In this document: positions 1,507 to 21,283 of the stretch, one piece after another
Numbering within the stretch: position 1 is the first letter of the stretch
How the letters are laid out: each line of letters starts with the position of its first letter
Source of the DNA: a virus
Strand: one strand, 5' to 3'
IMG/VR virus record: IMGVR_UViG_3300047471_000162
Location: 1 to 64,000 of that record
Length of the DNA: 64,000 bases
Program-made: the position numbers and the translations under genes
The notes under the pieces: model-generated
The model's input: the letters and a program-made list of their open reading frames with translations, nothing else
Databases searched by the model: none
What the model was told of the DNA's origin: nothing

Positions 1507-2109
1507 CTAGAACTCCGCCACGCGCTCATCCAAGCAAAGGTTGCCGCGCATCGTACGAATCCACACCTGATTGGTGTCACCCGAGACGCCCAGCGCCGAA
1601 GCGTCATCCTCGTTGTAGATTCGACGCATTTCCTTCCACGCGTCGTTCTCCGTGCTAAAGGGGAGCTCACGAGAGAAGGTGATTTCCCCCGACGCGTTCA
1701 GGTGCACGATCTTGACGGAGTAATCCATGTCCGCGTGGTCATCGCAGTGCTTGTCATCCGCAGGTGCCACATACAGGCGCCGGATCACCACAACGTCACT
1801 GGTGACGCGCTGCGACCAGTCCGACGCCCCCACGGTAACCCGCGTCTCGTCCCTGAAGTCCTCGGGGTCGGCAGGGGACATGATGCCGTAGCCAGCCCGG
1901 AAGTTCTGGAACTGCTTCGGCTGGGTGAATACCTTCGTCACGTGGCACCACATGCCGTAGAGGAAGACCAAGTCACCCTTGCGCACGTCGCCGTACGTGA
2001 CCGTCATTTCCTCGAACTGGAGATCTCCAGTAGTGCGGTAGGTGTAAAACCAGTTGTTGCCCCGGTGGTTGGTGTCTTTCGCGCCCATCGTGACGAGCTT
2101 CATGATCAT
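1507..2109 (-). CDS. Hypothetical protein
   Basis: 200-aa ORF with GGAGGG RBS and high third-position GC. Confidence 0.8.
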   Translation of the reverse strand: MIMKLVTMGAKDTNHRGNNWFYTYRTTGDLQFEEMTVTYGDVRKGDLVFLYGMWCHVTKVFTQPKQFQNFRAGYGIMSPADPEDFRDETRVTVGASDWSQRVTSDVVVIRRLYVAPADDKHCDDHADMDYSVKIVHLNASGEITFSRELPFSTENDAWKEMRRIYNEDDASALGVSGDTNQVWIRTMRGNLCLDERVAEF

Positions 2110-2215
2110 GCCCTCCGTCGTGTTTTGCTTGCCGTGCTATGAAGCTCCCGTAAGGTGGCGACCCTGTCAAGACCCCTTTCGGGAAGCTTGACAGGATCGT
2201 TACCCGGCGAAGAGA

Positions 2216-2395
2216 TCAGTCAAAGTCCGAGTGCATGCCCATGGCACAAGCACCGCACAGCGAACGCTTCTTACCCATGATCCGGATGGGGACGATCGTG
2301 TGTCGACCCGCACGCTTGTGCTCGTGCATCTCACGCACACAGTCGACCAGCCACTCAGTACCGTCACTCCACACGATCTTCCAGCCCTTGCGCAT
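2216..2395 (-). CDS. Small hypothetical protein (59 aa, CxxC)
   Basis: Manual translation MRKGWKIVWSDG...CGACAMGMHSDFD; GGAG RBS. Confidence 0.65.
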   Translation of the reverse strand: MRKGWKIVWSDGTEWLVDCVREMHEHKRAGRHTIVPIRIMGKKRSLCGACAMGMHSDFD

Positions 2396-2431
2396 GATCT
2401 ACTCCGTTTCGGTGGTTACACCTGGGTGAGG

Positions 2432-2593
2432 CTACGCCTGCCAAGCGTGGAAGTGCTTGGACCACACGTCGTCCATGGCGCTGTGATCGTAGTTCTCCCA
2501 CGGGTCCACAGCGGGGACGCTGACACCAGTGAACAGCTTGTCCAGCGCGTCTCGGCAGAGCTTATAAGCAATAAGCCGGAGCGTACTAGCCAC
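2432..2593 (-). CDS. Small hypothetical protein (53 aa)
   Basis: GTG start after GGGAGGGA; manual translation. Confidence 0.55.
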   Translation of the reverse strand: MASTLRLIAYKLCRDALDKLFTGVSVPAVDPWENYDHSAMDDVWSKHFHAWQA

Positions 2594-3676
2594 CGTGTGT
2601 CCCTCCCTCGTGTTCGTTCGCTGCTGACAGGGAGAACACTCCTCTTCTCTCGTCCATCTGTCAACTCCGCAGGTCAGAGGGCATTTGATCTAGGTATCTC
2701 CACCCAAGCCAAGGGTCGCAGACCCTCCCCCAACGGGTTTTTCGGCCCGCCGGAGGCATTCCTTACTACTTCTATACCCTAAGAGTCAATACATACTACA
2801 TAGATGGATAGATATTCATTACCTATGGATAGACATACATACAGTCATCTATGGATCTACTACAAACCCATAGCGACCTACCCAGAGCCCTATAGGGACC
2901 TAAAAACGCGCGATACCACATGCCATGCCACTACGTCAAAAAGCCCAAAAACGGCCCTCTAAGGCTCTGCTACACCCTCCTAGGTCCAACCACCCCAGGA
3001 CACTCCTGATAGCCCCGTAGAGACGATCTCACTCTCTGGTGATAGACCACATGAGGACTAGACCACTACTGGTATACCTGTTGACCTGGGGTTATCTGAT
3101 ACATGCACATACATACAAGACCATATGTCCGATATGCCCTAGAACCACCACACATACACCCCAGCACAGAGAGTCAATCAACCCACAGACCTCTTGACGT
3201 CCCTCTAGGCCGTAGGCTAGGGCACATGACCAACTAGGCTGAAAGCCTATATACCCCATTACCAACTAGGCTTTTAGCACATATACCCCATTACCAGGAC
3301 ATGAATACACTCATTCACCAGCCAATTCACCACAGTATCCCATTCAATGCTTCCTAGAATGCCAGAGATGTCTATGCCCGAATGCCCCTATTCATACGGA
3401 GAGTAACCATCATGCCCCTTTTTCCCTAGGGAAAGCATAACGCAGAGTAATAATAGCCCCGAATAGCCCTATTTAGCCTATTGTTTATGTCAATTCGAGA
3501 CCCCCCACCTTTAATAAAGCCATTCAGGGTGATGGCCTGCCTGGTAATTTGAATATGGTTTCAAGAAATACCTGAGGGCAGTACCCTTACTCTGCGGGAG
3601 AGTATTGTAATTTGAATACGATTCTGACTTCTCTCGTAGTACAGTATCCGAGAAAAGAAGATGGTATCCTATACCC

Positions 3677-3973
3677 ATGACTAATACATATGCTGATTCA
3701 AGAGATGACAACTACAACTGGCTGTTCGGAGATATGGATATACCCTCTGGTATGTGGCTAGAATTACACAGAGATCTTGACTATCCCCGATACCGTTTAC
3801 TCCTTATGGATGCTTCTGGTCCTCTGGAGGCTATGCTTATATATCCTAGTGAGGAGCGTATGACTGCTAAAGAGATGATAGGTAATCCTATGCCGACTTT
3901 TCTCCTATGGATAGAACAGAAGAAGAAGCTTGAAAAGAGTAGAAGACAGATAGTTGCACAGTTAGGTTTCTAA
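3677..3973 (+). CDS. Hypothetical protein
   Basis: ORF track; followed by a terminator hairpin. Confidence 0.7.
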   Translation: MTNTYADSRDDNYNWLFGDMDIPSGMWLELHRDLDYPRYRLLLMDASGPLEAMLIYPSEERMTAKEMIGNPMPTFLLWIEQKKKLEKSRRQIVAQLGF

Positions 3974-3977
3974 AACA

Positions 3978-4015
3978 AAATCTCCTTAGACCATATTCGC
4001 GGTCTAAGGAGATTT
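3978..4015. terminator. Bidirectional terminator between convergent genes
   Basis: AAATCTCCTTAGACC...GGTCTAAGGAGATTT inverted repeat. Confidence 0.8.
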
Positions 4016-8418: not shown

Positions 8419-8490
8419 CGGGCACGGGGAAGATGGTAATCCGCCTGCTTTGGGAGCAGGATGAACTCGGTTCGATTCCGGGGTGCCCGA
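8419..8490 (+). tRNA. tRNA-Pro(TGG)
   Basis: CCTGC-TTTGGGA-GCAGG anticodon arm; GGTTCGATTCC T arm. Confidence 0.9.
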
Positions 8491-8496
8491 CGTGTT

Positions 8497-8580
8497 AATA
8501 TGTGCCGTTGCATGTGGCAACGCAACTCCCTCGCAAGGGGACTGGGGTCATGTCCGGATGGGTTCGAATCCCTGCATATT
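8497..8580 (+). ncRNA. Atypical tRNA-like RNA with long variable arm, anticodon ambiguous (CGC or GCA)
   Basis: AATATGT/GCATATT acceptor-like stem; GGGTTCGAATCCC T arm. Confidence 0.5.
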
Positions 8581-8641
8581 AGCTTTAACTTGAGTTATAA
8601 ATCACGTATAGACATCACTAAACACACAGTAAGTAGGTTCA

Positions 8642-8827
8642 ATGTTTACCTGCAAGAATTGTGGTGAAGATATCAGAAACGGCAGTTCTACTGTTTATAT
8701 GAATGGAAATCATCCAATACTCTGGGTACATGACCTTGGTGGCTCTTCCATATGCGATCCGCAATGGAAGTATAGTCCTAGAGCAGAACCTCAAAACACA
8801 ACAGATACGATGCTAAATACAAATTAA
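8642..8827 (+). CDS. Small Zn-ribbon-like protein
   Basis: CKNCG...WVH....C. Confidence 0.6.
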   Translation: MFTCKNCGEDIRNGSSTVYMNGNHPILWVHDLGGSSICDPQWKYSPRAEPQNTTDTMLNTN

Positions 8828-8838
8828 TAACTCTATAT

Positions 8839-8910
8839 GGGCATGTAGCTTAGTTGGTAAAGCGGTGGGTTGAAGCCCCGCAGTCGTCGGTTCAATTCCG
8901 AACTTGCCCA
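8839..8910 (+). tRNA. tRNA-Phe(GAA)
   Basis: Cloverleaf; GTGGG-TTGAAGC-CCCGC. Confidence 0.9.
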
Positions 8911-8930
8911 CATTAAACTTTGGAGAGATT

Positions 8931-9095
8931 ATGGCAAAGAAGAATGATACACCCAAGGATCTTCCGGTCCTTATGCCTACTGGCAAGCGTCCTTCTTTGA
9001 AGGAACTGGCAGATACCGCTAAGATTGATCCAGTAGTAGATCGTCTTATCACCGATAAGAATATTTCAGTATCCGCGTTTAACTCCTCAATTTAA
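8931..9095 (+). CDS. FxSxx-COOH family RiPP precursor-like peptide (54 aa)
   Basis: C-terminus VSAFNSSI-stop; GGAGAG RBS before ATG at 8931. Confidence 0.75.
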   Translation: MAKKNDTPKDLPVLMPTGKRPSLKELADTAKIDPVVDRLITDKNISVSAFNSSI

Positions 9096-9102
9096 TAGTT
9101 TT

Positions 9103-9175
9103 GCCTGATTAGCTCAGCGGTCAGAGCGCGGGACTCATAAGCCCGTGGTCATCGGTTCGAATCCGATATCAGGTA
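9103..9175 (+). tRNA. tRNA-Met or Ile2 (CAT)
   Basis: Cloverleaf; CTCATAA loop. Confidence 0.9.
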
Positions 9176-9176
9176 C

Positions 9177-9255
9177 TGCGCGGATAGAGAAACGGTGTCT
9201 CGCGAGCCTCATAAGCTCGAAAGTAGTGTGGGTTCGACTCCCCCCTGCGCCACCA
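9177..9255 (+). tRNA. tRNA-Met(CAT), initiator-like
   Basis: CTCATAA loop; 1:72 mismatch; encoded CCA. Confidence 0.85.
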
Positions 9256-9435
9256 CTTATCCTTAGGGATTAGTAGATATATCGAAAGATAGAAGGTTAC
9301 TGTACACCCTTATACGAGTACAGTACTCTGGGGACTAAGCAGATTACTAAGATCTGGCTGACTAGGAGTATAAACTAGGAGGCCCACTAAAACTTTATCG
9401 TCCTCCGGAGGCACGACGTTAAACTACCTCCACCT

Positions 9436-9509
9436 GCGGATATTGCATAATGGTAGTGCCCAACTCTTCCAAAGTTGAGGCGCGGGTCCGATTCCCGCTA
9501 TCCGCTCCA
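9436..9509 (+). tRNA. tRNA-Gly(TCC)
   Basis: CAACT-CTTCCAA-AGTTG; encoded CCA. Confidence 0.9.
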
Positions 9510-9510
9510 A

Positions 9511-9581
9511 TCCCGATTCGTATAAAGGCATTACGCTGCTCTCTGGAAGCAGTCATCGAAGTTCGAATCTTTGATCGGGAG
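9511..9581 (+). tRNA. tRNA-Gln(CTG)
   Basis: CTGCT-CTCTGGA-AGCAG. Confidence 0.9.
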
Positions 9582-9585
9582 CTTT

Positions 9586-9710
9586 AGTACGTGGAGCAAC
9601 TGCATTCCGTCTGGTTCACAGCTTTGGCAGACAGGTAGATGCATAGCGTTGACACAATACCTTAGCGGGTATAGGCTATCAAGGACATAAGCTGAGAGAT
9701 AGCGCGTACT
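9586..9710 (+). ncRNA. Unassigned multi-branched structured RNA
   Basis: AGTACGT/GCGTACT closing stem with internal TGCAT/ATGCA, GTCTG/CAGAC and ATACC/GGTAT helices. Confidence 0.45.
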
Positions 9711-9802
9711 ATTTAGTTTTAGTAGGTCTGGGTAGTCTGCTAGCGACTGTAATCGGAGCCACCCTTTAATATGCGAGGAACGAGCTTTCCCTACTAATTT
9801 AA

Positions 9803-9873
9803 TCCCCTGTGGTGTAAAGGTAGCACCGGAGCCTTTGGATCTCCTAGTCTTGGTTCGAATCCCGGCAGGGGAG
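9803..9873 (+). tRNA. tRNA-Gln(TTG)
   Basis: CTTTGGA loop; cloverleaf. Confidence 0.9.
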
Positions 9874-9876
9874 CTT

Positions 9877-9970
9877 TTCGTATGTATGAGCAATTGGAAG
9901 ACGCGACCATCTAGAATGGTGCACCCGCCTGGGTATTAACGGATGTGGGTTCAAATCCCACCTTACGAAA
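9877..9970 (+). ncRNA. Atypical tRNA-like RNA (Leu TAG-like, C33, long variable region)
   Basis: TTCGTA/TACGAA stem; ACCA-TCTAGAA-TGGT; GTGGGTTCAAATCCCAC T arm. Confidence 0.5.
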
Positions 9971-10002
9971 ACTTTACTAACTTAATCTTATGAGGTACTA
10001 TC

Positions 10003-10176
10003 ATGGCAGAAAAGAAGAAAGCCGTTAAACATGTAGGTTTTAAGAATGCTGAGAAGAAAGTAGAATCTGAGGGCTATTCAAAGAAATCCGCAGGTGCTAT
10101 TATCGCATCAGCTTCTCGTAATGCTTCTTCTGCTGAAAAGAAAAAGAACCATAAGCTTAATAAAGTAAAAGGCTAA
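10003..10176 (+). CDS. Small Lys-rich basic protein (57 aa)
   Basis: GAGG RBS; MAEKKKAVKHVGFKNAEKK...KVKG. Confidence 0.7.
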   Translation: MAEKKKAVKHVGFKNAEKKVESEGYSKKSAGAIIASASRNASSAEKKKNHKLNKVKG

Positions 10177-10193
10177 ACTATAGGAGGCAAACT

Positions 10194-10502
10194 ATGGGGT
10201 ATTACTCAACATTTGAAGTTATTGATACTGATATTCAGGATATTGTCGATATTCTAAATGATGTATTAGAGGACACTGCGCACCCCGGATGGGTTACTTA
10301 TAGTAACGAGGAAGTTCACGGTTGCGGCTCCACTAAATGGTACGACTGGATAGAGGATTTGGCACTCTTCGCTACCAAATATCCTGACAACTTTCTTGTC
10401 ATCGAGCGTTGTGGTGAAGAGTCTCCAGATATGTCTAGAGCAATTGTCCGTCATGGTACTGTGCGGGAAGTTGAGCCCGAGATAGTATGGCCTGAATATT
10501 GA
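10194..10502 (+). CDS. Hypothetical protein
   Basis: AGGAGG RBS. Confidence 0.8.
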   Translation: MGYYSTFEVIDTDIQDIVDILNDVLEDTAHPGWVTYSNEEVHGCGSTKWYDWIEDLALFATKYPDNFLVIERCGEESPDMSRAIVRHGTVREVEPEIVWPEY

Positions 10503-10550
10503 TGGTATTCTCCTATTAAGATATGTGACACTTAATAGGAGAATATTTTT

Positions 10551-10982
10551 ATGCCAAAGCAAACAAAGTCTGAGCAGATTGATATGCTTCAAACAGAGTT
10601 AAAAGAAGCTCAAGCTATCATTCGTACTAAGACTAATAGAATAGACGAACTTCATAGTCAAGCTGACGATTTCATGGGTATAATTAGCGATCTAAATGCT
10701 GAGATTGCTAAACTTATTCATACTCCTGAGTTCGCTGCTGATACAGAGTCTGCATTTGACAGAGGACGTCAGGATGGAGTACGCTCTCTCGTATACTCGG
10801 CACAAGGCAAGCTAGTAGATATGCAGAAGGAGATTGAGGTACTTGTGCAATCCCTGGTTCGCAAGTATAGTAGAGACATGAGTTGGGATCTGTTCCATGG
10901 CGGTTATCCTTCTAGCGAGGAAGTAAAGCTACCAGATACAGACTTCACCAGAAAGCTACTAGACAACGCTGAGAAGTTGTAG
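10551..10982 (+). CDS. Coiled-coil hypothetical protein
   Basis: AGGAG RBS. Confidence 0.8.
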   Translation: MPKQTKSEQIDMLQTELKEAQAIIRTKTNRIDELHSQADDFMGIISDLNAEIAKLIHTPEFAADTESAFDRGRQDGVRSLVYSAQGKLVDMQKEIEVLVQSLVRKYSRDMSWDLFHGGYPSSEEVKLPDTDFTRKLLDNAEKL

Positions 10983-11015
10983 TACAGTAGTTAATACGAG
11001 CCCGCAAGGGCTTAT

Positions 11016-11088
11016 CCTCTCGTAGTGTATTGGTGTAGCACGGCACCCTGTCACGGTGTAAGGGCCGGTTCAATTCCGGTCGGGAGGA
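11016..11088 (+). tRNA. tRNA-Asp(GTC)
   Basis: GCACC-CTGTCAC-GGTGT. Confidence 0.9.
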
Positions 11089-11244
11089 CGTATCCGGTTA
11101 GTGGAATAGTCATCCGGACACATGCGAAAAGCTATGAATTGCATGTCGGCATAGAAGTGGCGCAGACAAGGGAAGGGCCACCAGCGAGGAGAACCAGTCG
11201 AAAGGCTGGGCACAAGGGATGAGACTCGCACTAAACTTAATAAT

Positions 11245-11317
11245 GCTCGATTGGACTAGCGGTTATGTCGCTTCCCTCTCAAGGAAGAGATCACGGGTTC
11301 AAATCCCGTATCGAGTA
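11245..11317 (+). tRNA. tRNA-Glu(CTC)
   Basis: CTTCC-CTCTCAA-GGAAG. Confidence 0.9.
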
Positions 11318-11381
11318 CAAGGCTATAGGTTCAGAACCTTAATTGGTGCCGGAATTCTGAATAGGCATCCTATGGCTTCAT

Positions 11382-11459
11382 GCCGCTGTTACTCTGTTGG
11401 TAGGGGTGCCCTGGTTTTCACCCAGGATGTCAGCGCCGGTTCGATTCCGGTCAGCGGTA
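11382..11459 (+). tRNA. tRNA-Glu(TTC)
   Basis: CCTGG-TTTTCAC-CCAGG. Confidence 0.88.
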
Positions 11460-11539
11460 CTTCATTAATTTAATAACTTTCCTATACAATAGACTTATGC
11501 TATAGCGAGCATTTCTATTTTCCTAGGAAAGGTATTCCC

Positions 11540-11839
11540 ATGGCTTTTACTTATACTATTGTTAAGGCTGATGCACTAGCCGTTAACGATCAGGTTCGTG
11601 CGGCAGTTATGCAGGACGGTCACTGCTACGTATTTCCAGTCCCTACAACTTCTGGGGCAACATTTCCCACCACTGTACGTTCTATCACTAATCTAGCTGC
11701 CGGTACTCCTGGTGCTGGTGGAACTGATGGACTATACAGTGTGCAGCTAAATAACGCTTCTGTATTTGCTCTACCAGTTGATTTCGTTATTAACGATAAT
11801 AACGACTTCATCGTTAAGGCAACAGGTACTGCTCCGTAA
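11540..11839 (+). CDS. Hypothetical protein (composition like a virion protein)
   Basis: ORF with RBS; T/A/G-rich. Confidence 0.75.
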   Translation: MAFTYTIVKADALAVNDQVRAAVMQDGHCYVFPVPTTSGATFPTTVRSITNLAAGTPGAGGTDGLYSVQLNNASVFALPVDFVINDNNDFIVKATGTAP

Positions 11840-11878
11840 GTCTTGAAGGTTGGCCACTAACCTGATATAGTGGCACTT

Positions 11879-11952
11879 GCCCCTATAGCTCATGTAGGCA
11901 GAGCAGGACTCTTGTAAAGTTCAGGCGGAGGGTGCAAGTCCTTCTGGGGGCT
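11879..11952 (+). tRNA. tRNA-Thr(TGT)
   Basis: GGACT-CTTGTAA-AGTTC; variant T loop TGCAAGT. Confidence 0.85.
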
Positions 11953-11990
11953 CTTGATTTAAAATCAACTGGTCTGCTACACTAATATCT

Positions 11991-12395
11991 ATGAACACTT
12001 GTAAATACTGTAATTTAGATATAGATAGCAGATCAGTTAAAATCTACTGTAATAATATTTGTCAGCAGAAATTTCAACAGGCTGAGAAAATAAAACTATG
12101 GTTAGAAACTGGTAAAGCTTACGCAGGTTCACATAAGAATCATTATGTTCGTAATTATGTAGCAGATGAGCAACAGCATCTTTGTGATATTTGTAGTTTT
12201 CCAGATTCATGGAATAATATGGACCTAGTTTTTGTATTAGATCATATTGACGGGGACTCTAGTAATAACTGGAGAACTAATCTTAGATTAGTTTGTCCTA
12301 ACTGCGATAGTCAGTTGTCAACGTATAAAGCTAAAAATAAAGGAAATGGACGACATTCTAGGCGGGAACGTTACGCAGAGGGTAAGTCCTATTAG
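11991..12395 (+). CDS. HNH homing endonuclease
   Basis: CDIC...LDHIDGDSSNNWRTNLRLVCPNCD. Confidence 0.9.
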   Translation: MNTCKYCNLDIDSRSVKIYCNNICQQKFQQAEKIKLWLETGKAYAGSHKNHYVRNYVADEQQHLCDICSFPDSWNNMDLVFVLDHIDGDSSNNWRTNLRLVCPNCDSQLSTYKAKNKGNGRHSRRERYAEGKSY

Positions 12396-12541
12396 ATTTA
12401 GGTTATGCACAGTAACACCTGGCACGGTGGTCTTGAAACCAAAGGTACTTCCGGGGTATCGTTGAAGGGTCAAGAGATAATCCGATTAAACGCTGAAGAC
12501 CTGTGTATCGAGACCGGTGTATGAACCGTCATCTCGATTAT

Positions 12542-12615
12542 GCTCCAATATCCCAGCGGCTAGAGGACGCAAGCTCAAACCTTGTGTGTCGTGGGTTCGA
12601 ATCCCACTTGGAGTA
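12542..12615 (+). tRNA. tRNA-Leu(CAA) with short variable loop
   Basis: GCAAG-CTCAAAC-CTTGT. Confidence 0.85.
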
Positions 12616-12628
12616 CGTAATATTTAAT

Positions 12629-12711
12629 GCCCGCATGGTGAAATCAGGCAGCCACGATTGACTTAAAATCAATTGTCTTCGGACGTGTCGGTTCGAGTCC
12701 GACTGTGGGCA
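12629..12711 (+). tRNA. tRNA-Leu(TAA), bldA-type anticodon
   Basis: ATTGA-CTTAAAA-TCAAT; variable arm present. Confidence 0.92.
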
Positions 12712-12755
12712 CGAGCTTTAAGGAAACCGTTGGGCATGACAACGGAACCAATTTT

Positions 12756-12836
12756 GCCCGTGTGGCGGAACTAGGCAGACGCGCCTGACTTAGGATCAGG
12801 TTCTTCGGAGTGCAGGTTCGATTCCTGTCACGGGTA
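12756..12836 (+). tRNA. tRNA-Leu(TAG)
   Basis: CCTGA-CTTAGGA-TCAGG. Confidence 0.92.
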
Positions 12837-12866
12837 CGTTAATAAATCCTACAAGGAGGCAACCTT

Positions 12867-13079
12867 ATGGATATCTTGGGGACTCTTGGTCCTTGGCTTC
12901 TTCTTATTATCATTGGTGGTTTTACTATCTTTATGACTCAGAAGAAGGGTTGGAAGTGGCAGCAGATTATCGCTGGAGTTTTACTTCTAGCAGCACTCTA
13001 CGGTAACTTTCCTTCATTACCTCAAAGTATCAATACTGGACTGAACAGTATCGTTACATCCTTTGAGAAAGGTAAGTAA
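12867..13079 (+). CDS. Two-TM membrane protein (possible holin)
   Basis: Two hydrophobic segments; near the endolysin; AAGGAGG RBS. Confidence 0.6.
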   Translation: MDILGTLGPWLLLIIIGGFTIFMTQKKGWKWQQIIAGVLLLAALYGNFPSLPQSINTGLNSIVTSFEKGK

Positions 13080-13093
13080 AGCCTTCGGGCTAT

Positions 13094-13161
13094 AGGGAGC
13101 GCACTGGGTGCGGGACACTCTCCAAAAGTATCCTTGCGGGGTTCGATCCCCCGGCTCCCTG
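13094..13161 (+). tRNA. tRNA-Trp(CCA), compact form with mini D arm
   Basis: AGGGAGC/GCTCCCT; GCAC-TGG-GTGC; CTCCAAA loop. Confidence 0.8.
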
Positions 13162-13213
13162 CTTTTCCTGTAGAATAGCTAAAGAATTAGTTATTCTACT
13201 ATAAGGAGCACAA

Positions 13214-13990
13214 ATGGCACTTATGCCAAATGCAACTTGGATCGGCCCAACTCCTAACCGTTACATTGGTGGGATGACAGCCTATCACGTTGTAGTACTA
13301 CACATTGAAGAAGGAACTGACGCGGGTTCCCGCGCATGGTTCACAAATCCAGAATCTCAGGCTTCCGCCCATTTCTTAAATCCCAAGAGTGGTCCTCTTG
13401 AGCAGTTAATCGACTCAGATGACGCATCTTGGGCTCAGATGGCTGGAAATCATATTGCTATCTCTGTTGAGCATGCAGGAAATGCAGGAGATGACCTAAC
13501 ACCTTCTCAGCTTGAGAACGACGCACAGCTTCTAGCTTGGGCTCATTTCACTCATGGTATTCCACTTCAGTCCACTGATGATCCTAACGGATTTGGGTTG
13601 GGTTGGCATGGAATGGGTGGAGACGCTTGGGGTGGACATTTCGGATGCCCTGGAGAGCCTATAAAGGCTCGTAGAGACGCTATCGTAGCCAGAGCGGCAC
13701 AGATCCTAGGACAGGCTCCAACAGGCGCTCCCAGCCCCTCTCCAGCCCCTCAGGGACCCGGTTTCCCGGGTGAGTACCTATCTGTACAGTCTCCTATGCT
13801 TCACGACAACAATGTTAGAGTGTGGCAGCAGAAGATGCACGACAGAGGCTGGACAATCAGCGTTGATGGATGGTATGGTAATGCTTCAGCAAGTGTTTGC
13901 CGTCAGTTCCAGTCTGAAAAGGGATTGACAGCGGATGGTATTGTTGGACCTAAGACATGGTTCACGACCTGGAATTCTCCAGTAACGTAA
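13214..13990 (+). CDS. Endolysin: N-acetylmuramoyl-L-alanine amidase plus peptidoglycan-binding domain
   Basis: VVLH...SAHF...SVEH...H..CPG; C-terminal VDG.YG...FQ...GLTADGIVGPKTW. Confidence 0.9.
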   Translation: MALMPNATWIGPTPNRYIGGMTAYHVVVLHIEEGTDAGSRAWFTNPESQASAHFLNPKSGPLEQLIDSDDASWAQMAGNHIAISVEHAGNAGDDLTPSQLENDAQLLAWAHFTHGIPLQSTDDPNGFGLGWHGMGGDAWGGHFGCPGEPIKARRDAIVARAAQILGQAPTGAPSPSPAPQGPGFPGEYLSVQSPMLHDNNVRVWQQKMHDRGWTISVDGWYGNASASVCRQFQSEKGLTADGIVGPKTWFTTWNSPVT

Positions 13991-13993
13991 GAC

Positions 13994-14022
13994 TTGACAC
14001 TACTCCCGCCTAGTGCTACAGT
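13994..14022 (+). promoter_or_regulatory. Sigma70/HrdB-type promoter
   Basis: TTGACA-17-TACAGT. Confidence 0.7.
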
Positions 14023-14081
14023 AGTGAATACGCCGAACGGAAGTATAAACAAAGATTTAGAACACTCCTAGTAGGCTTTAA

Positions 14082-14118
14082 TCCCGCATAGCTCAATGGC
14101 AGAGCACGTTATGTTAAA
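14082..14118 (+). pseudogene. 5' half of a tRNA (Asn-like), truncated just before an HNH gene
   Basis: TCCCGCATAGCTCAATGGCAGAGCA...TGTTAA with no T arm or 3' strand. Confidence 0.65.
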
Positions 14119-14126
14119 CTATAGTT

Positions 14127-14543
14127 ATGAATAATGACTATATGAAAGTTTATATGCAACAGCGTAGGAATAATCGACGTGCTACACTAACAGAGCTTGC
14201 AGGAGCTATGTGTCAACTCTGCCCTTCAGTTGAAGGGTTAGAGTTTGACCATATAGACAAAGCTACTAAGCTATTCACTCTAAGTGGAGCTGGGCTGGAT
14301 AAGGCTTGGCAAAAAATACTTGACGAACTTGCCAAGTGTCAGCTACTATGTAGTGAGTGCCACAAAATTAAAACTAGTATTATGGTAGATCACATAGGTG
14401 GTCATAATAAAATTCTAGAACAAGATCTACTGCATGGTACTGCACGAATGTATACCCTTAAAGGGTGTAGATGTAGTATGTGCAGATTGGCTAAGAAACG
14501 CTATCGTAATAAGGAAATTCTTATTAATGAATTAGCATCTTAG
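14127..14543 (+). CDS. HNH homing endonuclease
   Basis: CQLC...LEFDHID...KCQLLCSECHKIKT; C-terminal HGT...GCRC..C. Confidence 0.9.
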   Translation: MNNDYMKVYMQQRRNNRRATLTELAGAMCQLCPSVEGLEFDHIDKATKLFTLSGAGLDKAWQKILDELAKCQLLCSECHKIKTSIMVDHIGGHNKILEQDLLHGTARMYTLKGCRCSMCRLAKKRYRNKEILINELAS

Positions 14544-14549
14544 CGGTAT

Positions 14550-14625
14550 TCTCACGGGGCAGCTATTGGCAGCTGCAACGGTCTGTTAAACCGTCACCCT
14601 ACTGGTTCGATTCCAGTCGTGAGAG
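14550..14625 (+). tRNA. tRNA-Asn(GTT)
   Basis: ACGGT-CTGTTAA-ACCGT. Confidence 0.88.
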
Positions 14626-14630
14626 CTTGT

Positions 14631-14727
14631 AGGAAGTCTTAGACATGGGCTACGGTTCAATTCCGTAACAATGCTGGTGGGTGGTTGATCGCCACATGCC
14701 TTCTAGGTGCGAAACCTAGAGCTTCCT
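14631..14727 (+). ncRNA. Structured RNA containing a T-arm-like hairpin
   Basis: AGGAAG/CTTCCT closing stem; TACGG-TTCAATT-CCGTA; TCTAGGT/ACCTAGA hairpin. Confidence 0.5.
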
Positions 14728-14736
14728 CATTGACTT

Positions 14737-14877
14737 GACAGCGATGCGTAGATAAGAGATACTTCAAGGGAACCCTTAGTCGTAGGTTCGAATCCTACCC
14801 GGCCGAACACTTCGGTTGGTAGCTCAGCGGTAGAGCAGGGGTAAGTAAAATTCTTTTATCGCTTCTTTCTAGCTGTC
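14737..14877 (+). ncRNA. Y RNA, YrlA-like, with a circularly permuted tRNA-like domain (unit 1)
   Basis: GACAGC/GCTGTC terminal stem; CGATGCG...TACTTC...TTTCTAG scaffold; order T arm, looped acceptor-like stem, D arm; upstream of a Ro60 gene. Confidence 0.85.
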
Positions 14878-14886
14878 TTATAACTT

Positions 14887-14980
14887 AAGAGCCGATGCGT
14901 AGATCAGGGGTTACTTCCTCACTAATTCAAATGGTTGGGCCATAGCGCCCGTCTCCTCAGATCGCTTTTTCTAGGCCCTT
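14887..14980 (+). ncRNA. Y-RNA-like unit 2
   Basis: AAGAGCC/GGCCCTT stem; CGATGCG...TTACTTC...TTTCTAG. Confidence 0.75.
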
Positions 14981-14996
14981 ACGCTAACTTAATTTT

Positions 14997-15069
14997 TCTA
15001 CCCGATGCGCAGTTAACAGTTACTTCCTTCCAAAATATAAGCACTGTTAACGACTTTTTCTAGGGTGGA
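14997..15069 (+). ncRNA. Y-RNA-like unit 3 (minimal)
   Basis: TCTACCC/GGGTGGA and GTTAACAGT/ACTGTTAAC stems; same three motifs. Confidence 0.75.
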
Positions 15070-15080
15070 TCTCAAATTTC

Positions 15081-15208
15081 AGTTCCGATGCGAAGGTATA
15101 CTGGTTACTTCCCACTTGAAATGAGAACGGGAGGGTTTGAATCCCTCAAGGTCCACTCAGGGCCTGCATGACGCCAGTTAACACCAGAAGCCGCTATTTC
15201 TAGGAACT
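15081..15208 (+). ncRNA. Y-RNA-like unit 4 with T-arm hairpin
   Basis: AGTTCC/GGAACT stem; same motifs; GAGGG-TTTGAAT-CCCTC. Confidence 0.75.
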
Positions 15209-15221
15209 TATTTTTAATCCT

Positions 15222-15263
15222 CCCCATTGTCCGAGTTTTCTCGCACTAATGGGGTTTATTTTT
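15222..15263 (+). terminator. Intrinsic terminator-like hairpin after the Y-RNA array
   Basis: CCCCATT...AATGGGG followed by TTTATTTTT. Confidence 0.6.
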
Positions 15264-15298
15264 CTCTAACCATGTACCACGATAAAGGAGGCAATACA

Positions 15299-16876
15299 AT
15301 GGCTAAGTTCAATCAGGTAGTTAAGACAGGTGTACAGTCCCCTATTAAGACTACAGTTAAGACTGTAAACGCTGATGGTTTCGCAGCATTTCAGAGGGAT
15401 ACCAAGTCAGAGCTGTTCCTCCTGGCAGTATCCAACTTTGTTGGGCAGGATATGTTCTATGAGAATGCAAAGAACCGTGATGACCGTTTTGCCAAGCTCT
15501 GCCAGGCAGTAGCTGTGCAGGATTCCGACTGGTTCCGCAAGTTCGTGGGTTGGCTCCGTAATGGTGCTCAGATGCGTTCTGCGTCCATCGTAGCGGCTGC
15601 TGAGGGTGCTAAGGCACTTCTAGACGCTGGCGCGGTGAATGGCTCTCCTAGGGCCCTTGTAGCGGCTTCTATGGCACGTGCTGATGAGCCTGGTGAGTTC
15701 CTGGCATACTGGACTTCTAAGTATGGTAAGAATCTGCCTCAGTCGATTAAGAAGGGTGTTGCTGATGCGGCTAACCGTCTCTACAACGAGTACTCTCTTC
15801 TTAAGTACGATACGGATTCCAAGGGGTTCCGTTTTGCTGATGTTCTTCAGCTTAGCCACGCTAAGGCAAAGGATGCAAAGCAGAACGACCTTTTCCACTA
15901 TGCACTGAACCGTCGTTATGGTAAGGAGCACGTTATTTGGCATCACAATGCGCAAATTCCATTGAATCTTCCTATGATTGACATTCGACGTTTTATTATG
16001 GATCTTCCAGTTAATAAGCGCCGTGACTACCTGTCAAAGGCTCCTGAAGCCTTTAAGAGTGCGGGTATGACTTGGGAGGCTCTTGCAGGATGGCTTCAGG
16101 GTCCTATGGATGCTCAGGCTTGGCAGTCAGTTATTCCCAACATGGGTTATATGGCACTGCTTCGTAACCTTCGTAACTTCCAGGAAGCGGGCGTGGATAC
16201 TAAGGTATTCAAGTCTGTGCTGACTAAGCTATCCAATAAGGATGAGGTTGCAAAGTCTCGTCAGTTCCCTTTCCGATTCCTGTCTGCCTACCAGGCAAAT
16301 CTGGGTAACCTCAAGATTGCTGCGGCTCTCGAAGAGGCACTAGAGTCTTCTCTTATTAACGTTCCGGCGCTATCTGGTAAGACTTTGATCCTGGTTGACC
16401 GCTCTGGTAGCATGTTCTGGAGCAATGATGACAAGATGAACCTGACGCTTGCCGATCAGGCAGCGATCTTCGGATCCTCTTTGGCACTGCGTGCTGAGAG
16501 TGCTACACTGGTCCAGTTCGGCTCTAGCTCCTCTGAGATCAACTTCCGCAAGGGAGATTCTGTTCTCAAGTTGGTCAAGGACAGTTTCATTGGGATGGGT
16601 GGCACAGCTACAGATCGTGCTATCAAGGCGCACTTCAAGGATCATGATCGTGTTATTCTCATCACTGATGAGCAGTACAACTCTGGTCATGCTCCTTCTG
16701 TACCTAAGGGCACTCCGATGTACACGTGGAACCTTGGTGGATACCCGGCTGCTCAGGCAGAGTCCGGTAGCAACAAGAAGCACACATTCGGTGGCTTGAC
16801 TGACAAGGCATTCAGTATGATCCCTATGCTTGAGTCTGGTCAGTCTGGCGTTTGGCCTTGGGATCTGGTAGAGTAG
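15299..16876 (+). CDS. Ro60/Rsr-like TROVE-domain RNA-binding protein with C-terminal VWA domain
   Basis: FYE...RF, RADEPGE, MTWE, MGYMALLRNLRN, SRQFPFRFLSAY, LVDRSGSM (MIDAS), ITDEQ; AAGGAGG RBS places the start at 15299. Confidence 0.93.
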   Translation: MAKFNQVVKTGVQSPIKTTVKTVNADGFAAFQRDTKSELFLLAVSNFVGQDMFYENAKNRDDRFAKLCQAVAVQDSDWFRKFVGWLRNGAQMRSASIVAAAEGAKALLDAGAVNGSPRALVAASMARADEPGEFLAYWTSKYGKNLPQSIKKGVADAANRLYNEYSLLKYDTDSKGFRFADVLQLSHAKAKDAKQNDLFHYALNRRYGKEHVIWHHNAQIPLNLPMIDIRRFIMDLPVNKRRDYLSKAPEAFKSAGMTWEALAGWLQGPMDAQAWQSVIPNMGYMALLRNLRNFQEAGVDTKVFKSVLTKLSNKDEVAKSRQFPFRFLSAYQANLGNLKIAAALEEALESSLINVPALSGKTLILVDRSGSMFWSNDDKMNLTLADQAAIFGSSLALRAESATLVQFGSSSSEINFRKGDSVLKLVKDSFIGMGGTATDRAIKAHFKDHDRVILITDEQYNSGHAPSVPKGTPMYTWNLGGYPAAQAESGSNKKHTFGGLTDKAFSMIPMLESGQSGVWPWDLVE

Positions 16877-17005
16877 TTTTTACAAGATAAGGGTAAGTCT
16901 TTTCTAGAGGGAACCCTTGGGTACAAGATATGCTGAGTACAGATAGGCAAATGCTTGTAAACTGATCCTCCACCATCTGATTTGGGGGATGCCTCTAGGA
17001 GTCTT

Positions 17006-17079
17006 GGGCTTGTAGCTCCAATTGGAAGAGCAACTGATTTGCACTCAGTAGGTTGTCGGTTCGAGTCCGACCTGGTCCA
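17006..17079 (+). tRNA. tRNA-Ala(TGC)
   Basis: ACTGA-TTTGCAC-TCAGT; G3:U70. Confidence 0.9.
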
Positions 17080-17112
17080 CTCCTGTACAGAAAACTACAA
17101 GGAGGCAAAATA

Positions 17113-17343
17113 ATGGCTAAGAACTACGTTAAGATTAATGGTATTAAGATTGGTCCTCCAGCACCCGGTGGCTGGACTGCTGAGGATGTTGCTTCTTGGA
17201 ATTTTGATGAGAACGGTACTCCGCGCAACCATAATCCTACGCGTTGTCAGTATGTAGGTGGACTTCTCACCAAGAGTCGTTGTACTCGCGATGCTGAATC
17301 TGGAAATGCCTACTGTTCTCGGCACATTGGCAAGGGTGCCTAA
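17113..17343 (+). CDS. Small C3H Zn-finger-like protein
   Basis: AGGAGG RBS before MAKNY; RCQY...RC......YCSRH. Confidence 0.7.
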   Translation: MAKNYVKINGIKIGPPAPGGWTAEDVASWNFDENGTPRNHNPTRCQYVGGLLTKSRCTRDAESGNAYCSRHIGKGA

Positions 17344-17369
17344 GTTAAACAGGCGCGAAAGCGCCTTAT

Positions 17370-17440
17370 GCTCCGCAAGCATTAAGGTGATGTAACTGGC
17401 TCTTACCCAGTGGAACACGGTTCGATACCGTGGCGGAGTA
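17370..17440 (+). tRNA. tRNA-Lys(CTT)
   Basis: ACTGG-CTCTTAC-CCAGT. Confidence 0.88.
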
Positions 17441-17510
17441 CAACACGTAGTTGCAACTACGTATAGGTGTGTTGGGGTTCAACTCCCAGTGGTAAACAAC
17501 ACACTGATTT

Positions 17511-17583
17511 GCCCCCTTAGCTCAATGGTAGAGTACCGGACTTTTAATCCGTGGAGTTGTCGGTTCGAGTCCGACAGGGGGCA
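17511..17583 (+). tRNA. tRNA-Lys(TTT)
   Basis: CGGA-CTTTTAA-TCCG. Confidence 0.9.
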
Positions 17584-17718
17584 CATGGATGAAATATATG
17601 AATTTGGCAGTAAGGTCGCCTTTAGGTGTTCTGGTTGTGGTAAGACTGAAGGTGGCTTTATGGATAGAGTAGCAGCCCAGGTAGCTCTACGCTTACATAA
17701 GATTGGATGTAAGAAAAG

Positions 17719-18210
17719 TTGACAGTACCCATTGCTGGTGATTTTGGATTAGTACCAATTAAGGGAACTACAGGTTTTCTTATACGAGTTGGTCAATGGC
17801 TCAATGGTGATGGCTTTAAGAACTATGAGCATGCTTTTGTATATATTGGTGACGATAAGATAGTAGAAGCTGAACCAGGCGGAGCTAGAGTAGCAGACCT
17901 TAGTGAGTACGATGGTCGTAGTGTCCTCTGGAGTACTGACAAGGTACAGTTGACCGATGAGCAGAGAACGGCCGTCGTAGGAGCGGCACAGGGCTTTGTA
18001 GGGGTACCCTACAGCTTCCTTGACTACCTACTCCTGGCTCTTAAGCGACTGCACATCTCAGTACCGATTTTGAACAAGCGTGTGCTAGAGTCCAAGCATC
18101 TTATCTGTAGTCAGCTAGTAGCTGAAGCTGAGGCAGTGGGAGGTATATTGCTAACGAGCAAGCCAGCGTATACAGTAACCCCAGCAGATCTAGCCAATAT
18201 AATCGCGTAA
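17719..18210 (+). CDS. Permuted papain-like NlpC/P60 (YaeF/YiiX-type) protein
   Basis: GD...H(AFVYIG)...VEA...PY...ICSQLV, with His before Cys. Confidence 0.8.
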   Translation: MTVPIAGDFGLVPIKGTTGFLIRVGQWLNGDGFKNYEHAFVYIGDDKIVEAEPGGARVADLSEYDGRSVLWSTDKVQLTDEQRTAVVGAAQGFVGVPYSFLDYLLLALKRLHISVPILNKRVLESKHLICSQLVAEAEAVGGILLTSKPAYTVTPADLANIIA

Positions 18211-18227
18211 TAAACAAGGAGGCAACC

Positions 18228-19136
18228 ATGTTTAATAAGCTTTTCAAGTCCAATACAATCCGAACCACTACCACAACTGTTATTGCATCTGGCAATGGTG
18301 CAGTAGCTGCTGGTGGGAGTATCACTGTTATTGGCAGCGGTAATCAGGTTGTAGGATCCGGCGCATATGGTAATGTGTTTACTACAGCTTTTAGTAACAA
18401 GGCTCTTCGTAGTGTGACTCTTCGATTTGGAGATACTACTAAGGCAGCTGTGAGTCTCAATAAGTCTGCTAGTGTGTCTCTGACTAAGAAGGTTGCCGAT
18501 TCTGTGGCATCCCTCAGTCGTGGAAAGATTATGGGTATCCGTATGGATGTTCTTGCTTTTATTGATGCATCAGGTTCTATGAACTATCTTTACAATAACA
18601 ACACTGTAGATGATGTCACTGAGCAGGGTTTGGCGCTAGCTATGACTATTGATGAGGACGGTGTTATTCCTACTGGTACCTTTGGCTCTAACTTCTCTTG
18701 GCGAGCTGATGTTACTCAGAATAACTACCAGGGTGTAGTTACCCGGGAGAATTTCTTTACAGGAGGTTCTACTAATCTTTCCGCTGCTCTCGCCTCTTTG
18801 GAGGAGGCAGCCAAGAAGGCTACTAATCCTATTTATGCCATGATCGTTACTGATGGCGCTCCGAATGATCGTGTGGATGTTGTAAAGCGCATTCGCCGCC
18901 TGTCTCAGTATCCTGTCTTTATCAAGTTCCTTGTTGTGGGCAATGATGCTCGTGCTTGGAAGTTTGTTGAGGATGACTTGAATAATATGGATAGTAGTCT
19001 GCGACTGGTGGATAATGTAAACTCCCGTAGGATCCTTAATCTTAACGAGTTGACTTCTGAGAAGTTTGCAGATCTTCTTACCGAAGAGTTGCCCGAGTGG
19101 GTTGATGCAGCTAAGGCTGCTGGTCTGCTTGTATAG
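18228..19136 (+). CDS. VWA domain protein (TerF-associated vWA-like)
   Basis: IDASGSM, GGSTN and IVTDGAP MIDAS motifs; FIKFLVVG. Confidence 0.85.
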   Translation: MFNKLFKSNTIRTTTTTVIASGNGAVAAGGSITVIGSGNQVVGSGAYGNVFTTAFSNKALRSVTLRFGDTTKAAVSLNKSASVSLTKKVADSVASLSRGKIMGIRMDVLAFIDASGSMNYLYNNNTVDDVTEQGLALAMTIDEDGVIPTGTFGSNFSWRADVTQNNYQGVVTRENFFTGGSTNLSAALASLEEAAKKATNPIYAMIVTDGAPNDRVDVVKRIRRLSQYPVFIKFLVVGNDARAWKFVEDDLNNMDSSLRLVDNVNSRRILNLNELTSEKFADLLTEELPEWVDAAKAAGLLV

Positions 19137-19162
19137 TATTAAGTAGCCCTTTGGGGCTATAT

Positions 19163-19235
19163 GTCACCGTAGCTCAGGGGATAGAGCACTTCGCTACGAA
19201 CGAAGGGGTCGGGGGTTCAAATCCCTCCGGTGACA
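19163..19235 (+). tRNA. tRNA-Arg(ACG)
   Basis: CTTCG-CTACGAA-CGAAG. Confidence 0.92.
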
Positions 19236-19283
19236 CAGGGATACCTAAACCATGTTGAGACGCACCCTAGAAAGCCTTAATAT

Positions 19284-19844
19284 ATGGTGGCTCCGCCAGA
19301 GGCCATAATGATCTGGTTTTATACTTCAAGCACGGAGGTTTACTTGTCTCGTACTTATAGCCATCGTCCTCATTGGGTTAAGCTAAACGATCCTAAAACA
19401 CCTACTAAAGAACGTCATCAGCACTACGTAGTAAAGAAGGAAAAAGTAGGAGAAGAATTAGTAGAGACGTATGCATGGCGCCGAGATTTGGATATGCCAA
19501 AGCATACATATACAAGAGCTATCTACTATCGATGGACTGAGCAAGTTCCCTGTACTATTGACATTCCAGAGCATAGCTGGCAAGATCGCAGTAAGTATCC
19601 TGATAAGCTGTGCGATAAACGACTACTATTTACTGTAGGCTGTCCTTGCTGCTCTCGCCGCTACACGAAGCGCTTGACCAACGGAGCTAGACGTAGTAAG
19701 GTTAACCAAGCAATGAATAGTGCAGTACGGGATCTGGGCAAGTGGATACTTCTACCAGATGATGTTATTGCGTATGATGAAGCTTGGGATGATGTTGACA
19801 TCAATCCTGTTAGCAAGTACGATAGTCCTTATTGGTGGGACTAG
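19284..19844 (+). CDS. Hypothetical protein
   Basis: ORF; start probably TTG near 19344 after GGAGG. Confidence 0.7.
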   Translation: MVAPPEAIMIWFYTSSTEVYLSRTYSHRPHWVKLNDPKTPTKERHQHYVVKKEKVGEELVETYAWRRDLDMPKHTYTRAIYYRWTEQVPCTIDIPEHSWQDRSKYPDKLCDKRLLFTVGCPCCSRRYTKRLTNGARRSKVNQAMNSAVRDLGKWILLPDDVIAYDEAWDDVDINPVSKYDSPYWWD

Positions 19845-19858
19845 CCCGAAAGGGTATC

Positions 19859-19931
19859 GCCTCTGTAGCTCAAGGGATAGAGCAAGCGGTTTCTACCCGC
19901 TAGGTTGGGAGTTCGAATCTCTCCAGGGGCA
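19859..19931 (+). tRNA. tRNA-Arg(TCT)
   Basis: AGCGG-TTTCTAC-CCGCT. Confidence 0.92.
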
Positions 19932-19970
19932 CGTAAGAACCATATCGATATAATAATCTGGAGGCTATAA

Positions 19971-20183
19971 ATGGGTATCTTCAATCGTGGTGGTGGACCT
20001 TCGGGTACTCCTGCGGAAGAGGATGACACAGTTATCGGTGTTCGTGGTTCGGCCGCTAATAAGGGTCGTGGTAAGGTAACAGCAGAGCGTACTAGATTTG
20101 GTGACTCTACTGTGGATGTAACTTGGGAGAATGGTACTAAGGGAACTTATGCCCAGTGGGAAGTTGCTGGTACTAACATCTAA
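19971..20183 (+). CDS. Small SH3-like hypothetical protein
   Basis: GGAGG RBS; G.GKV...VDVTWENG. Confidence 0.7.
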   Translation: MGIFNRGGGPSGTPAEEDDTVIGVRGSAANKGRGKVTAERTRFGDSTVDVTWENGTKGTYAQWEVAGTNI

Positions 20184-20207
20184 GTAAAACGGGGCGAAAG
20201 CCCTTAT

Positions 20208-20278
20208 GCCCGCTTAGTTCAATGGGAGAACAACGGTTTTACACACCGTTTACGGGGGTTCGATTCCCTCAGTGGGTA
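20208..20278 (+). tRNA. tRNA-Val(TAC)
   Basis: ACGGT-TTTACAC-ACCGT. Confidence 0.9.
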
Positions 20279-20287
20279 CGCTTTAAT

Positions 20288-20366
20288 GGGGATCATCTGG
20301 ATTCGACTAGCTTTAAAGCCGCATGTCGGACAGGCTAGGAAGGGGGTTCAAATCCCCCGATCTCCA
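20288..20366 (+). ncRNA. Minimal tmRNA-like RNA (tRNA-like domain only)
   Basis: GGGGATC-ATCTGGATTCGAC 5' end like ssrA; G3:U70; CTAGCTT/AGGCTAG helix; T arm; GATCTCCA 3' end; no tag ORF. Confidence 0.8.
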
Positions 20367-20370
20367 CTTT

Positions 20371-20447
20371 GCTACCAGACCTAAATCACAAGGCGTGGTA
20401 ACGCTCTGCAAAAGCGTTGGTTCGGAGTTCGACTCTCCCTGGTAGCT
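20371..20447 (+). tRNA. tRNA-Cys(GCA)
   Basis: ACGCT-CTGCAAA-AGCGT; U73. Confidence 0.85.
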
Positions 20448-20451
20448 CTTT

Positions 20452-20540
20452 GGAGATGTGGCTGAGTCTGGTCTAAGGCGCTTCACTGCTAATGAAGAGA
20501 CTCCGAAAGGGGTCCGCAGGTTCAAATCCTGTCATCTCCG
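20452..20540 (+). tRNA. tRNA-Ser(GCT)
   Basis: CTTCA-CTGCTAA-TGAAG; long variable arm. Confidence 0.92.
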
Positions 20541-20725
20541 CATTAAGGAGGAAATATGATGCAAGTAACAAGAGACGTAGAAATTATGTGTCTATGTGGT
20601 AGAAAGAAGACAGTAACTCTCACTTATAGAGATACTACTGATTCTTACTACAGAGAATTAGAGCATGCAAAGCAAACGTTTGCTAGAGCACATAATTGTC
20701 GAGCATAATAACTAGAAGGGCTATA

Positions 20726-20890
20726 ATGGCTAAGCAGTTCAAGCAGGATCAGGAAGTCAAGGTTGCCAGTGCCTATAGGGGTAAGATCCTGGGTAAGGAT
20801 TGGAATAATGACAGTCTGTATCGTGTAGAGCTTTTGGAAGGTCCACAAAAGGGTAAGGTCATTAGCTATACGGTAGATATGCTAAAGTAA
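20726..20890 (+). CDS. Small SH3-like hypothetical protein
   Basis: MAKQFKQDQEVKV... Confidence 0.6.
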   Translation: MAKQFKQDQEVKVASAYRGKILGKDWNNDSLYRVELLEGPQKGKVISYTVDMLK

Positions 20891-20914
20891 GTAGTAAGGG
20901 GCTTCGGCCCACCT

Positions 20915-21001: not shown

Positions 21002-21010
21002 CTTTACAAT

Positions 21011-21094: not shown

Positions 21095-21100
21095 CTTTAT

Positions 21101-21187: not shown

Positions 21188-21191
21188 CTTT

Positions 21192-21267: not shown

Positions 21268-21283
21268 CTTTATAACTAAATAC

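Follow-up and report, generated by a model that had tools for sequence, protein, structure and literature searches.

Background

The closest described system to the locus reported here is that of the bacterial FxSxx-COOH (FxsA) precursor peptides and FxsB, the family and the enzyme both being known already. MscB, a member of the FxsB family, cross-links C4 of phenylalanine to the beta carbon of serine within aromatic-X-X triads (PMC11002830). Genes for the processing of FxSxx peptides lie within predicted conflict systems with TIR-AP-ATPase-TPR effectors (PMC7159879), and the FxSxx peptide has been proposed to be a toxin or a signal (Kaur, Burroughs, Iyer, Aravind 2020, PMC7159879). No description of a phage-encoded FxSxx precursor was found in the open-access literature. 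To our knowledge, an action of Fxs loci against phages is a prediction that no experiment shows, and the only proposal for these loci of which we know is a computational one, in which the locus is a conflict system and the peptide a toxin or signal.

The DNA analysed here (hereafter the window) covers the first 64 kb of an IMG/VR virus record that is 112,903 bp long and rated 100% complete by CheckV. An ORF at positions 8931-9095 (+) of this window encodes a 54-aa peptide, P0001, that ends in VSAFNSSI-stop. The gene is an orphan in the phage, set in a tRNA array, and a preliminary description of the window had taken the peptide for an FxSxx-COOH precursor.

The peptide gene and its position in the tRNA array

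The features of the locus are as follows.

8839-8911 (+): tRNA-Phe(GAA), upstream boundary of the slot (ARAGORN; Rfam tRNA, 58.4 bits)
8922-8927 (+): RBS GGAGAG, 3 nt 5' of the P0001 ATG, read from the sequence
8931-9095 (+): P0001 coding sequence, stop included; 54-aa FxsA-like precursor, kept in the phage loci L001, L061 and L063
8937-8978 (+): N-terminal motif K-x-x-D-x-P-K-D-x-P-x-L-x-P (residues 3-16; alignment A1)
8985-9011 (+): leader motif KRPSLKELA (residues 19-27; alignment A2), common to bacterial FxsA leaders
9069-9092 (+): core VSAFNSSI-COOH, in which F50-N51-S52 is the triad expected to form the cyclophane and two more residues lead to the free carboxyl
9103-9176 (+): tRNA-Met(CAT), downstream boundary, 7 nt past the P0001 stop (ARAGORN; Rfam, 66.3 bits)

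The reading frame opens with the ATG at 8931 and closes with the TAA at 9093-9095, and a second stop codon (TAG) follows immediately. The preliminary description had reported a 54-aa peptide with a good RBS between two tRNA genes, which is confirmed by the ATG at 8931, the GGAGAG and the tRNAs predicted by ARAGORN and Rfam. A longer version with a TTG start would overlap tRNA-Phe, and all homologues begin at the ATG; the longer version was thus rejected and the start placed at 8931. The gap between tRNA-Phe and tRNA-Met measures 191 nt and is filled by the P0001 ORF, over which no Rfam family was found.

The array around P0001 comprises 30 tRNAs on one strand (8419-21500). Neither a promoter-like nor a terminator-like site belonging to the ORF itself was found nearby, so that P0001 is probably expressed by read-through from the transcript of the array, from which cuts by RNase P and RNase Z would leave a short P0001 mRNA of ~190 nt.

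Small ORFs and a further tRNA surround the gene. A 79-aa ORF lies antisense at the P0001 locus, where chance ORFs thus do arise. Between tRNA-Pro and tRNA-Phe, a gap of 347 nt is taken up by an ORF of 61 aa (8642-8827 (+)) that contains a C-x-x-C pair and has no Pfam match; since the Pro-Phe gap of the related viral contig L001 is only 77 nt, this ORF is not common to L001. A second tRNA-Met(CAT), 79 nt in length (9177-9255 (+)), abuts the first and scores 35.9 bits with Rfam, compared with 66.3 bits for its neighbour. The cultured phage GiJojo also carries this abutting pair, which may represent an initiator/elongator pair or an atypical tRNA.

The phage genome

Among the products of the phage genome, which has a GC content of 44.6%, are a terminase, a portal protein, a major capsid protein, a tail fibre, a Ro-like RNA-binding protein and an endolysin. 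In the major capsid protein, identity to the Streptomyces phages BRock, pSt2308, GiJojo, Alone3 and LuckySocke is 85-87%, and the tRNA order of the window (Pro-Phe-Met-Met-Gly-Gln-Gln-Asp-Glu-Glu) is that of GiJojo, the only one of these phages in which it was confirmed. Judged by this capsid identity and tRNA order, the phage is an uncultured BRock-like phage of Streptomycetaceae; its host family, placed through the same kinship, is a likely one only.

The Ro-like protein (15227-16876 (+); phrog_850, E 1e-54) is encoded inside the tRNA array, as it is in GiJojo. Also inside the array is the gene for a 302-aa protein with a vWA-TerF-like domain (18228-19136 (+); PF10138, E 1e-29). The literature connects bacterial FxSxx systems with vWA-MoxR conflict systems. 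A link between the vWA-TerF-like protein and the peptide is nevertheless doubtful, since GiJojo has no peptide gene but does have, at a comparable position in its tRNA array, a gene annotated as 'CobT-like'. The left end of the window is richer in GC (0.57 at 1-2000 and 0.50 at 2001-4000, versus ~0.44), and none of the three ORFs located there (922-1371, 1441-2142 and 2231-2782) has a Pfam match.

Membership of the FxSxx-COOH family

P0001 carries F-x-S-x-x at its extreme C terminus (F50-N51-S52-S53-I54, then stop), and its ending is identical to that of P0038, an NCBI-named member from Kitasatospora indigofera. The HMM of the FxSxx-COOH family, TIGR04268, had been put forward in the preliminary description as a check on the assignment. 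It gave no match for P0001 at E<=10, and a six-frame search of the genome was likewise negative, an outcome that formally counts against the assignment. P0001 also found no match in NCBIfam or in Pfam, the Pfam set searched being one without PF27839 and thus silent on that family. The curated cut-off of TIGR04268 is 28 bits; the bona fide member P0038 scores 37.4 bits and intermediate peptides score 27.7, 27.1, 25.8 and 25.3 bits, while the peptide of the phage locus L063 (24.7 bits) and the nearest relatives of P0001 (12.6-17.7 bits) all lie below the cut-off.

A phmmer search of 1.84 billion representatives returned three short relatives, which end in AFNSS[IV]. The long hits of the same search (P0002-P0004, P0007-P0009 and P0011-P0013) are Kelch/HEAT repeat proteins (7 of the 9 checked against Pfam), in which a repeated Y-D-P-V-R-D-R piles up score against I-D-P-V-V-D-R, and they were therefore discarded as spurious. 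Searching with A1, a profile built from the phage peptides, brought up 31 peptides in an unbroken continuum. This continuum runs from peptides with the N-terminal motif, through carriers of PF27839 (named 'FXSXX-COOH protein' by JGI), to a Kitasatospora indigofera member that NCBI names 'FxSxx-COOH cyclophane-containing RiPP peptide'. P0001 itself matches the family profile A2 at 79.9 bits.

Alignment A4 consists of 13 bacterial precursors sampled independently with TIGR04268, for which 18 of 301 class genomes were above the cut-off. Their tails vary (GFQSAI, GFDSSI, TFNSAL, AFNSSI and others), and hhalign aligned A1 with A4 from R20 to I54 at 94.6% probability (E 7e-8). Two FxSxx-COOH clusters also ranked first, at 0.77, in a protein-atlas feature search, a result of use as a lead only.

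The contribution of the leader was assessed by shuffling it 2000 times with the last eight residues fixed. For P0010, P0017, P0026 and the L063 peptide, no shuffle reached the score of the native leader (0/2000). By comparison, the score of the P0001 leader was reached by 228 of 2000 shuffles against a Kitasatospora-type HMM and by 58 of 2000 against an independently retrieved bacterial set; it was reached by none (0/2000) only when the comparison set was query-biased, its members having been collected with the phage profile. The P0001 leader alone is thus, by this test, only marginally like bacterial leaders, and recognition by FxsB may consequently have been lost. With a weak signal in P0001 and strong ones in its relatives, membership rests on the full-length phage relatives and the intermediates, and by this chained homology P0001 is a diverged member of the FxSxx-COOH (FxsA) family. 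The identity proposed in the preliminary description therefore stands by way of the intermediates (12.6-27.7 bits; hhalign, 94.6%) but not through P0001 itself, which has no TIGR04268 match.

Alignment A1 shows no variation at D6, P8, K9, D10 and P12 of the N-terminal motif. This motif (K-N-D-V-P-K-D-L-P-type) occurs only in phage-type peptides or in metagenomic peptides of untraceable origin, and was found in 0 of 57 bacterial genome loci although it was one of the patterns scanned for. At the position of the leader motif of P0001, bacterial peptides show RPSLAELA. In alignment A2, A49, F50, N51, S52 and S53 are invariant across the 26 sequences; the mid-leader of P0001 has drifted, while KRPSLKELA, one downstream Arg and the core are retained.

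Conservation of the gene among phages

The same Phe-to-Met slot holds such a peptide in three other phage-type lineages, taken here as uncultured and BRock-like. In the viral contig L001/L002, a 56-aa homologue with 52% identity lies between tRNA-Phe and tRNA-Met. The other two are low-GC, tRNA-dense metagenome lineages: in L061, the peptide gene ends 3 nt 5' of tRNA-Met, and in L063/L064 it begins 21 nt past tRNA-Phe, with an HNH-like ORF between it and tRNA-Met. The tRNA-Phe neighbour is thus common to L001 and L063/L064, and the tRNA-Met neighbour to L001 and L061. The Phe-Met slot appears to be an insertion hot spot. The ORF between the FxsA-like gene and tRNA-Met of L063 (6211-6681 (+)) encodes 156 aa, is rich in Cys and His and was judged HNH endonuclease-like by eye.

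Between P0001 and L001, 0.31 of the non-synonymous and 0.81 of the synonymous sites differ; in the last eight codons, third positions differ in 7 of 8 while the residues are identical. The P0001 ORF has a GC content of 0.42 and a GC3 of 0.40, compared with a GC of 0.45 for the window and with GC 0.69-0.72 and GC3 ~0.8 for the bacterial homologues. Judged by these substitutions, the P0001 ORF is a real gene under selection. Saturated synonymous sites with kept residues, together with a phage-like composition, indicate that it is an old resident of the lineage, and neither recent host DNA nor an assembly chimera.

The A2 profile finds a single copy of the peptide gene in the phage genome. None of five cultured BRock-like phages matches this profile (0/5), which, as a positive control, finds the gene in the window genome, in the L001 contig and in Kitasatospora. 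In GiJojo, the Phe-Met spacer is 90 nt long and contains no ORF and no visible gene remnant. The peptide gene is therefore accessory: at least four uncultured lineages retain it and the isolates lack it. The survey of phages for orphan precursors that the preliminary description had suggested was positive in part: such a peptide occurs in L001/L002, L061 and L063/L064, but tblastn searches with P0001 and P0017 as queries revealed no relative among 50,697 phage records. Scans of viral contigs with the profiles A2 and A3 returned only L001/L002 and L127, the last of which was rejected as a phage carrier because its contig has 70% GC and looks bacterial.

Bacterial Fxs loci and the orphan state of the phage gene

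A scan of one genome per species identified 57 bacterial loci with related peptides, all in genomes named Kitasatospora or Streptomyces and with 71-77% GC. The match to these loci starts only at about residue 8-22, mostly at residue 20. In all 61 bacterial loci with enough flanking sequence to be counted (61/61), an ORF of ~800 aa with a radical-SAM cysteine motif begins 14-116 nt past the stop of the precursor. The adjacent radical-SAM protein exceeded the TIGR04269 (FxsB) cut-off in both genomes tested (584 and 579 bits), so that bacterial AFNSSI peptides do lie directly upstream of FxsB, in agreement with the background on FxsB given in the preliminary description.

A Kitasatospora locus (L029), the only one to be annotated, shows the gene order FxsC (TIR), FxSxx_TPR, precursor, FxsB, AAC(3)-like acetyltransferase, FxsC, FxSxx_TPR, and agrees with the earlier statement that FxsC and TPR/NTPase genes accompany the precursor. 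Its FxSxx_TPR protein combines ParA-like, TIR, NB-ARC and TPR domains, and its FxsB bears an HExxH-type extension. PADLOC returned only a candidate model for this locus, on the ParA-like domain. The AAC(3)-like N-acetyltransferase between FxsB and FxsC (L029, 12685-13530 (+)) scores 166.7 bits, with an NCBIfam cut-off of 270, and could be a further peptide-tailoring enzyme.

None of the Fxs partner genes accompanies the peptide in the phage. The complete 112,903-bp genome has no match to TIGR04269 (FxsB) and no PF04055 radical-SAM domain. It also lacks FxSxx_TPR and FxsC: NF040586 and NF040588, two families that are both present in L029, were unmatched in the phage, the NF040588 search having been run without a positive control of its own. 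The absence of Fxs enzymes noted earlier for the window thus holds, and the search for fxsB extends it to the complete phage genome.

FxsB is nevertheless common in the likely host family. Of 201 genomes sampled within the family to which the Kitasatospora reference genome G001 belongs, 172 have FxsB above the cut-off, so that a host enzyme would usually be available. These genomes often contain two to five copies of FxsB, in long (~800 aa) and short (~420 aa) forms. In contrast, TIGR04268 precursors exceeded their cut-off in only 18 of the 301 class genomes sampled. Five cultured phages do without the peptide gene although the host family commonly has FxsB, so that the gene is dispensable on those hosts.

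Proposed function

The phage has no maturase of its own, and the peptide therefore most likely works through the Fxs locus of the host, which P0001 most likely uses or interferes with. The reading that best fits the locus, and that we hold with moderate confidence, is that of a selected phage gene of the FxsA family that acts through the host Fxs locus and whose product is probably cyclised by host FxsB. The host machinery would recognise the leader (KRPSLKELA and the downstream Arg) and the core (F50-N51-S52-S53-I54-COOH), and FxsB would form a Phe-Ser cyclophane on the phage peptide. The cyclised product, or the precursor itself, would then engage the TIR, NB-ARC and TPR Fxs proteins of the host and shift their state to the advantage of the phage. 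Modification by FxsB, binding to the TPR protein and the direction of the effect, whether silencing or steering, are inferred here, as are the borrowed host maturase and the mimic or decoy roles suggested in the preliminary description. A single complex prediction for residues 1-400 of a Kitasatospora FxsB (12-row alignment) with the peptide (A2) gave scores of 0.38, 0.29 and 0.17 relative to a mark of 0.32, with no controls, and was weighed neither for nor against these steps.

A tentative proposal, possible though doubtful, is that the peptide is an anti-defence mimic, a host-matured look-alike that holds the TIR/NB-ARC/TPR sensor in its resting state during infection. Fxs sensors would, in that case, monitor how much of their own cyclophane peptide FxsB has made.

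It is also conceivable, but unlikely, that P0001 acts as a decoy in its unmodified form, with a leader and C-terminal tail that would bind and titrate either FxsB or the TPR sensor and so block the maturation or perception of host FxsA. Such a role would be consistent with the mid-leader of the window subclade, which has drifted from bacterial leaders while the termini are fixed, and with the added phage-type N-terminal motif. However, the F-N-S triad and the two residues that follow it are invariant in 26 of 26 aligned peptides, and such invariance fits a need for modification or an exact mimicry of the modified end.

We consider it less probable still that P0001 descends from FxsA but functions outside Fxs, for example as a small regulator or adaptor whose tail docks on another host or phage protein. 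What stays strictly invariant in the peptide is precisely the FxSxx-COOH core together with the RPSL-x-EL motif of the leaders in the bacterial family, and sister phage peptides in the same slot retain fully FxsA-like leaders. These features weigh against such a role, in spite of an N-terminal motif that has no bacterial counterpart, the location of the gene among tRNA and RNA-handling genes, including that of the Ro-like protein, and the lack of a direct TIGR04268 match for P0001. A last reading, already disfavoured and very improbable, takes the ORF for captured host DNA that persists without function, or for a frame that arose by chance between tRNA genes. The absence of the ORF from five cultured relatives, the 90-nt spacer of GiJojo and the 79-aa antisense ORF might suggest as much. 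However, the frame has stayed open in all four diverged lineages, residues are conserved in spite of saturated synonymous sites, the composition is phage-like and an RBS is present.

That a phage lineage keeps the precursor by itself under purifying selection, with no enzyme, is an argument for a role of the peptide during infection. If host FxsB does mature the phage peptide, the virus would, unusually, depend on a RiPP enzyme of its host; if the peptide is in addition an anti-defence mimic, the phage would be the first virus known to borrow a host RiPP maturase and would provide the first functional handle on Fxs. The phage peptide also enables a simple genetic test, in which phages with and without the peptide are compared on fxs+ and fxs- hosts.

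Comparison with known systems

In the open-access literature searched, a conserved clade of enzyme-less phage peptides with an N-terminal motif of its own and a fixed slot in a tRNA array has not been described. The cultured BRock-like phages (Borockvirus brock, GiJojo, pSt2308, Alone3 and LuckySocke) resemble the window phage in their capsid and in their genomes of about 113-116 kb, but differ in that 0 of 5 match the peptide profile. The bacterial relatives of P0001 sit in Fxs or VMAP-ternary-associated loci (PMC7159879), whereas the phage has the peptide only. With the triceptide substrates of FxsB and MscB, P0001 shares the F-N-S aromatic-X-X triad, on which a cross-link is predicted by analogy. 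P0001 is encoded without an enzyme; thus, any modification must come in trans from the host.

The closest likeness is to the FxsA/FxSxx-COOH precursors of Actinomycetota (TIGR04268, PF27839; SjiA subfamily NF040585). P0001 has the same length of ~55 aa, the A-F-N-S-S-I-COOH end seen in Kitasatospora, a leader of the RPSL-x-EL type and an Arg before the core. It departs from these precursors in its extra N-terminal motif, its GC content of 42% compared with ~70%, the absence of a TIGR04268 hit and its place in a phage tRNA array.
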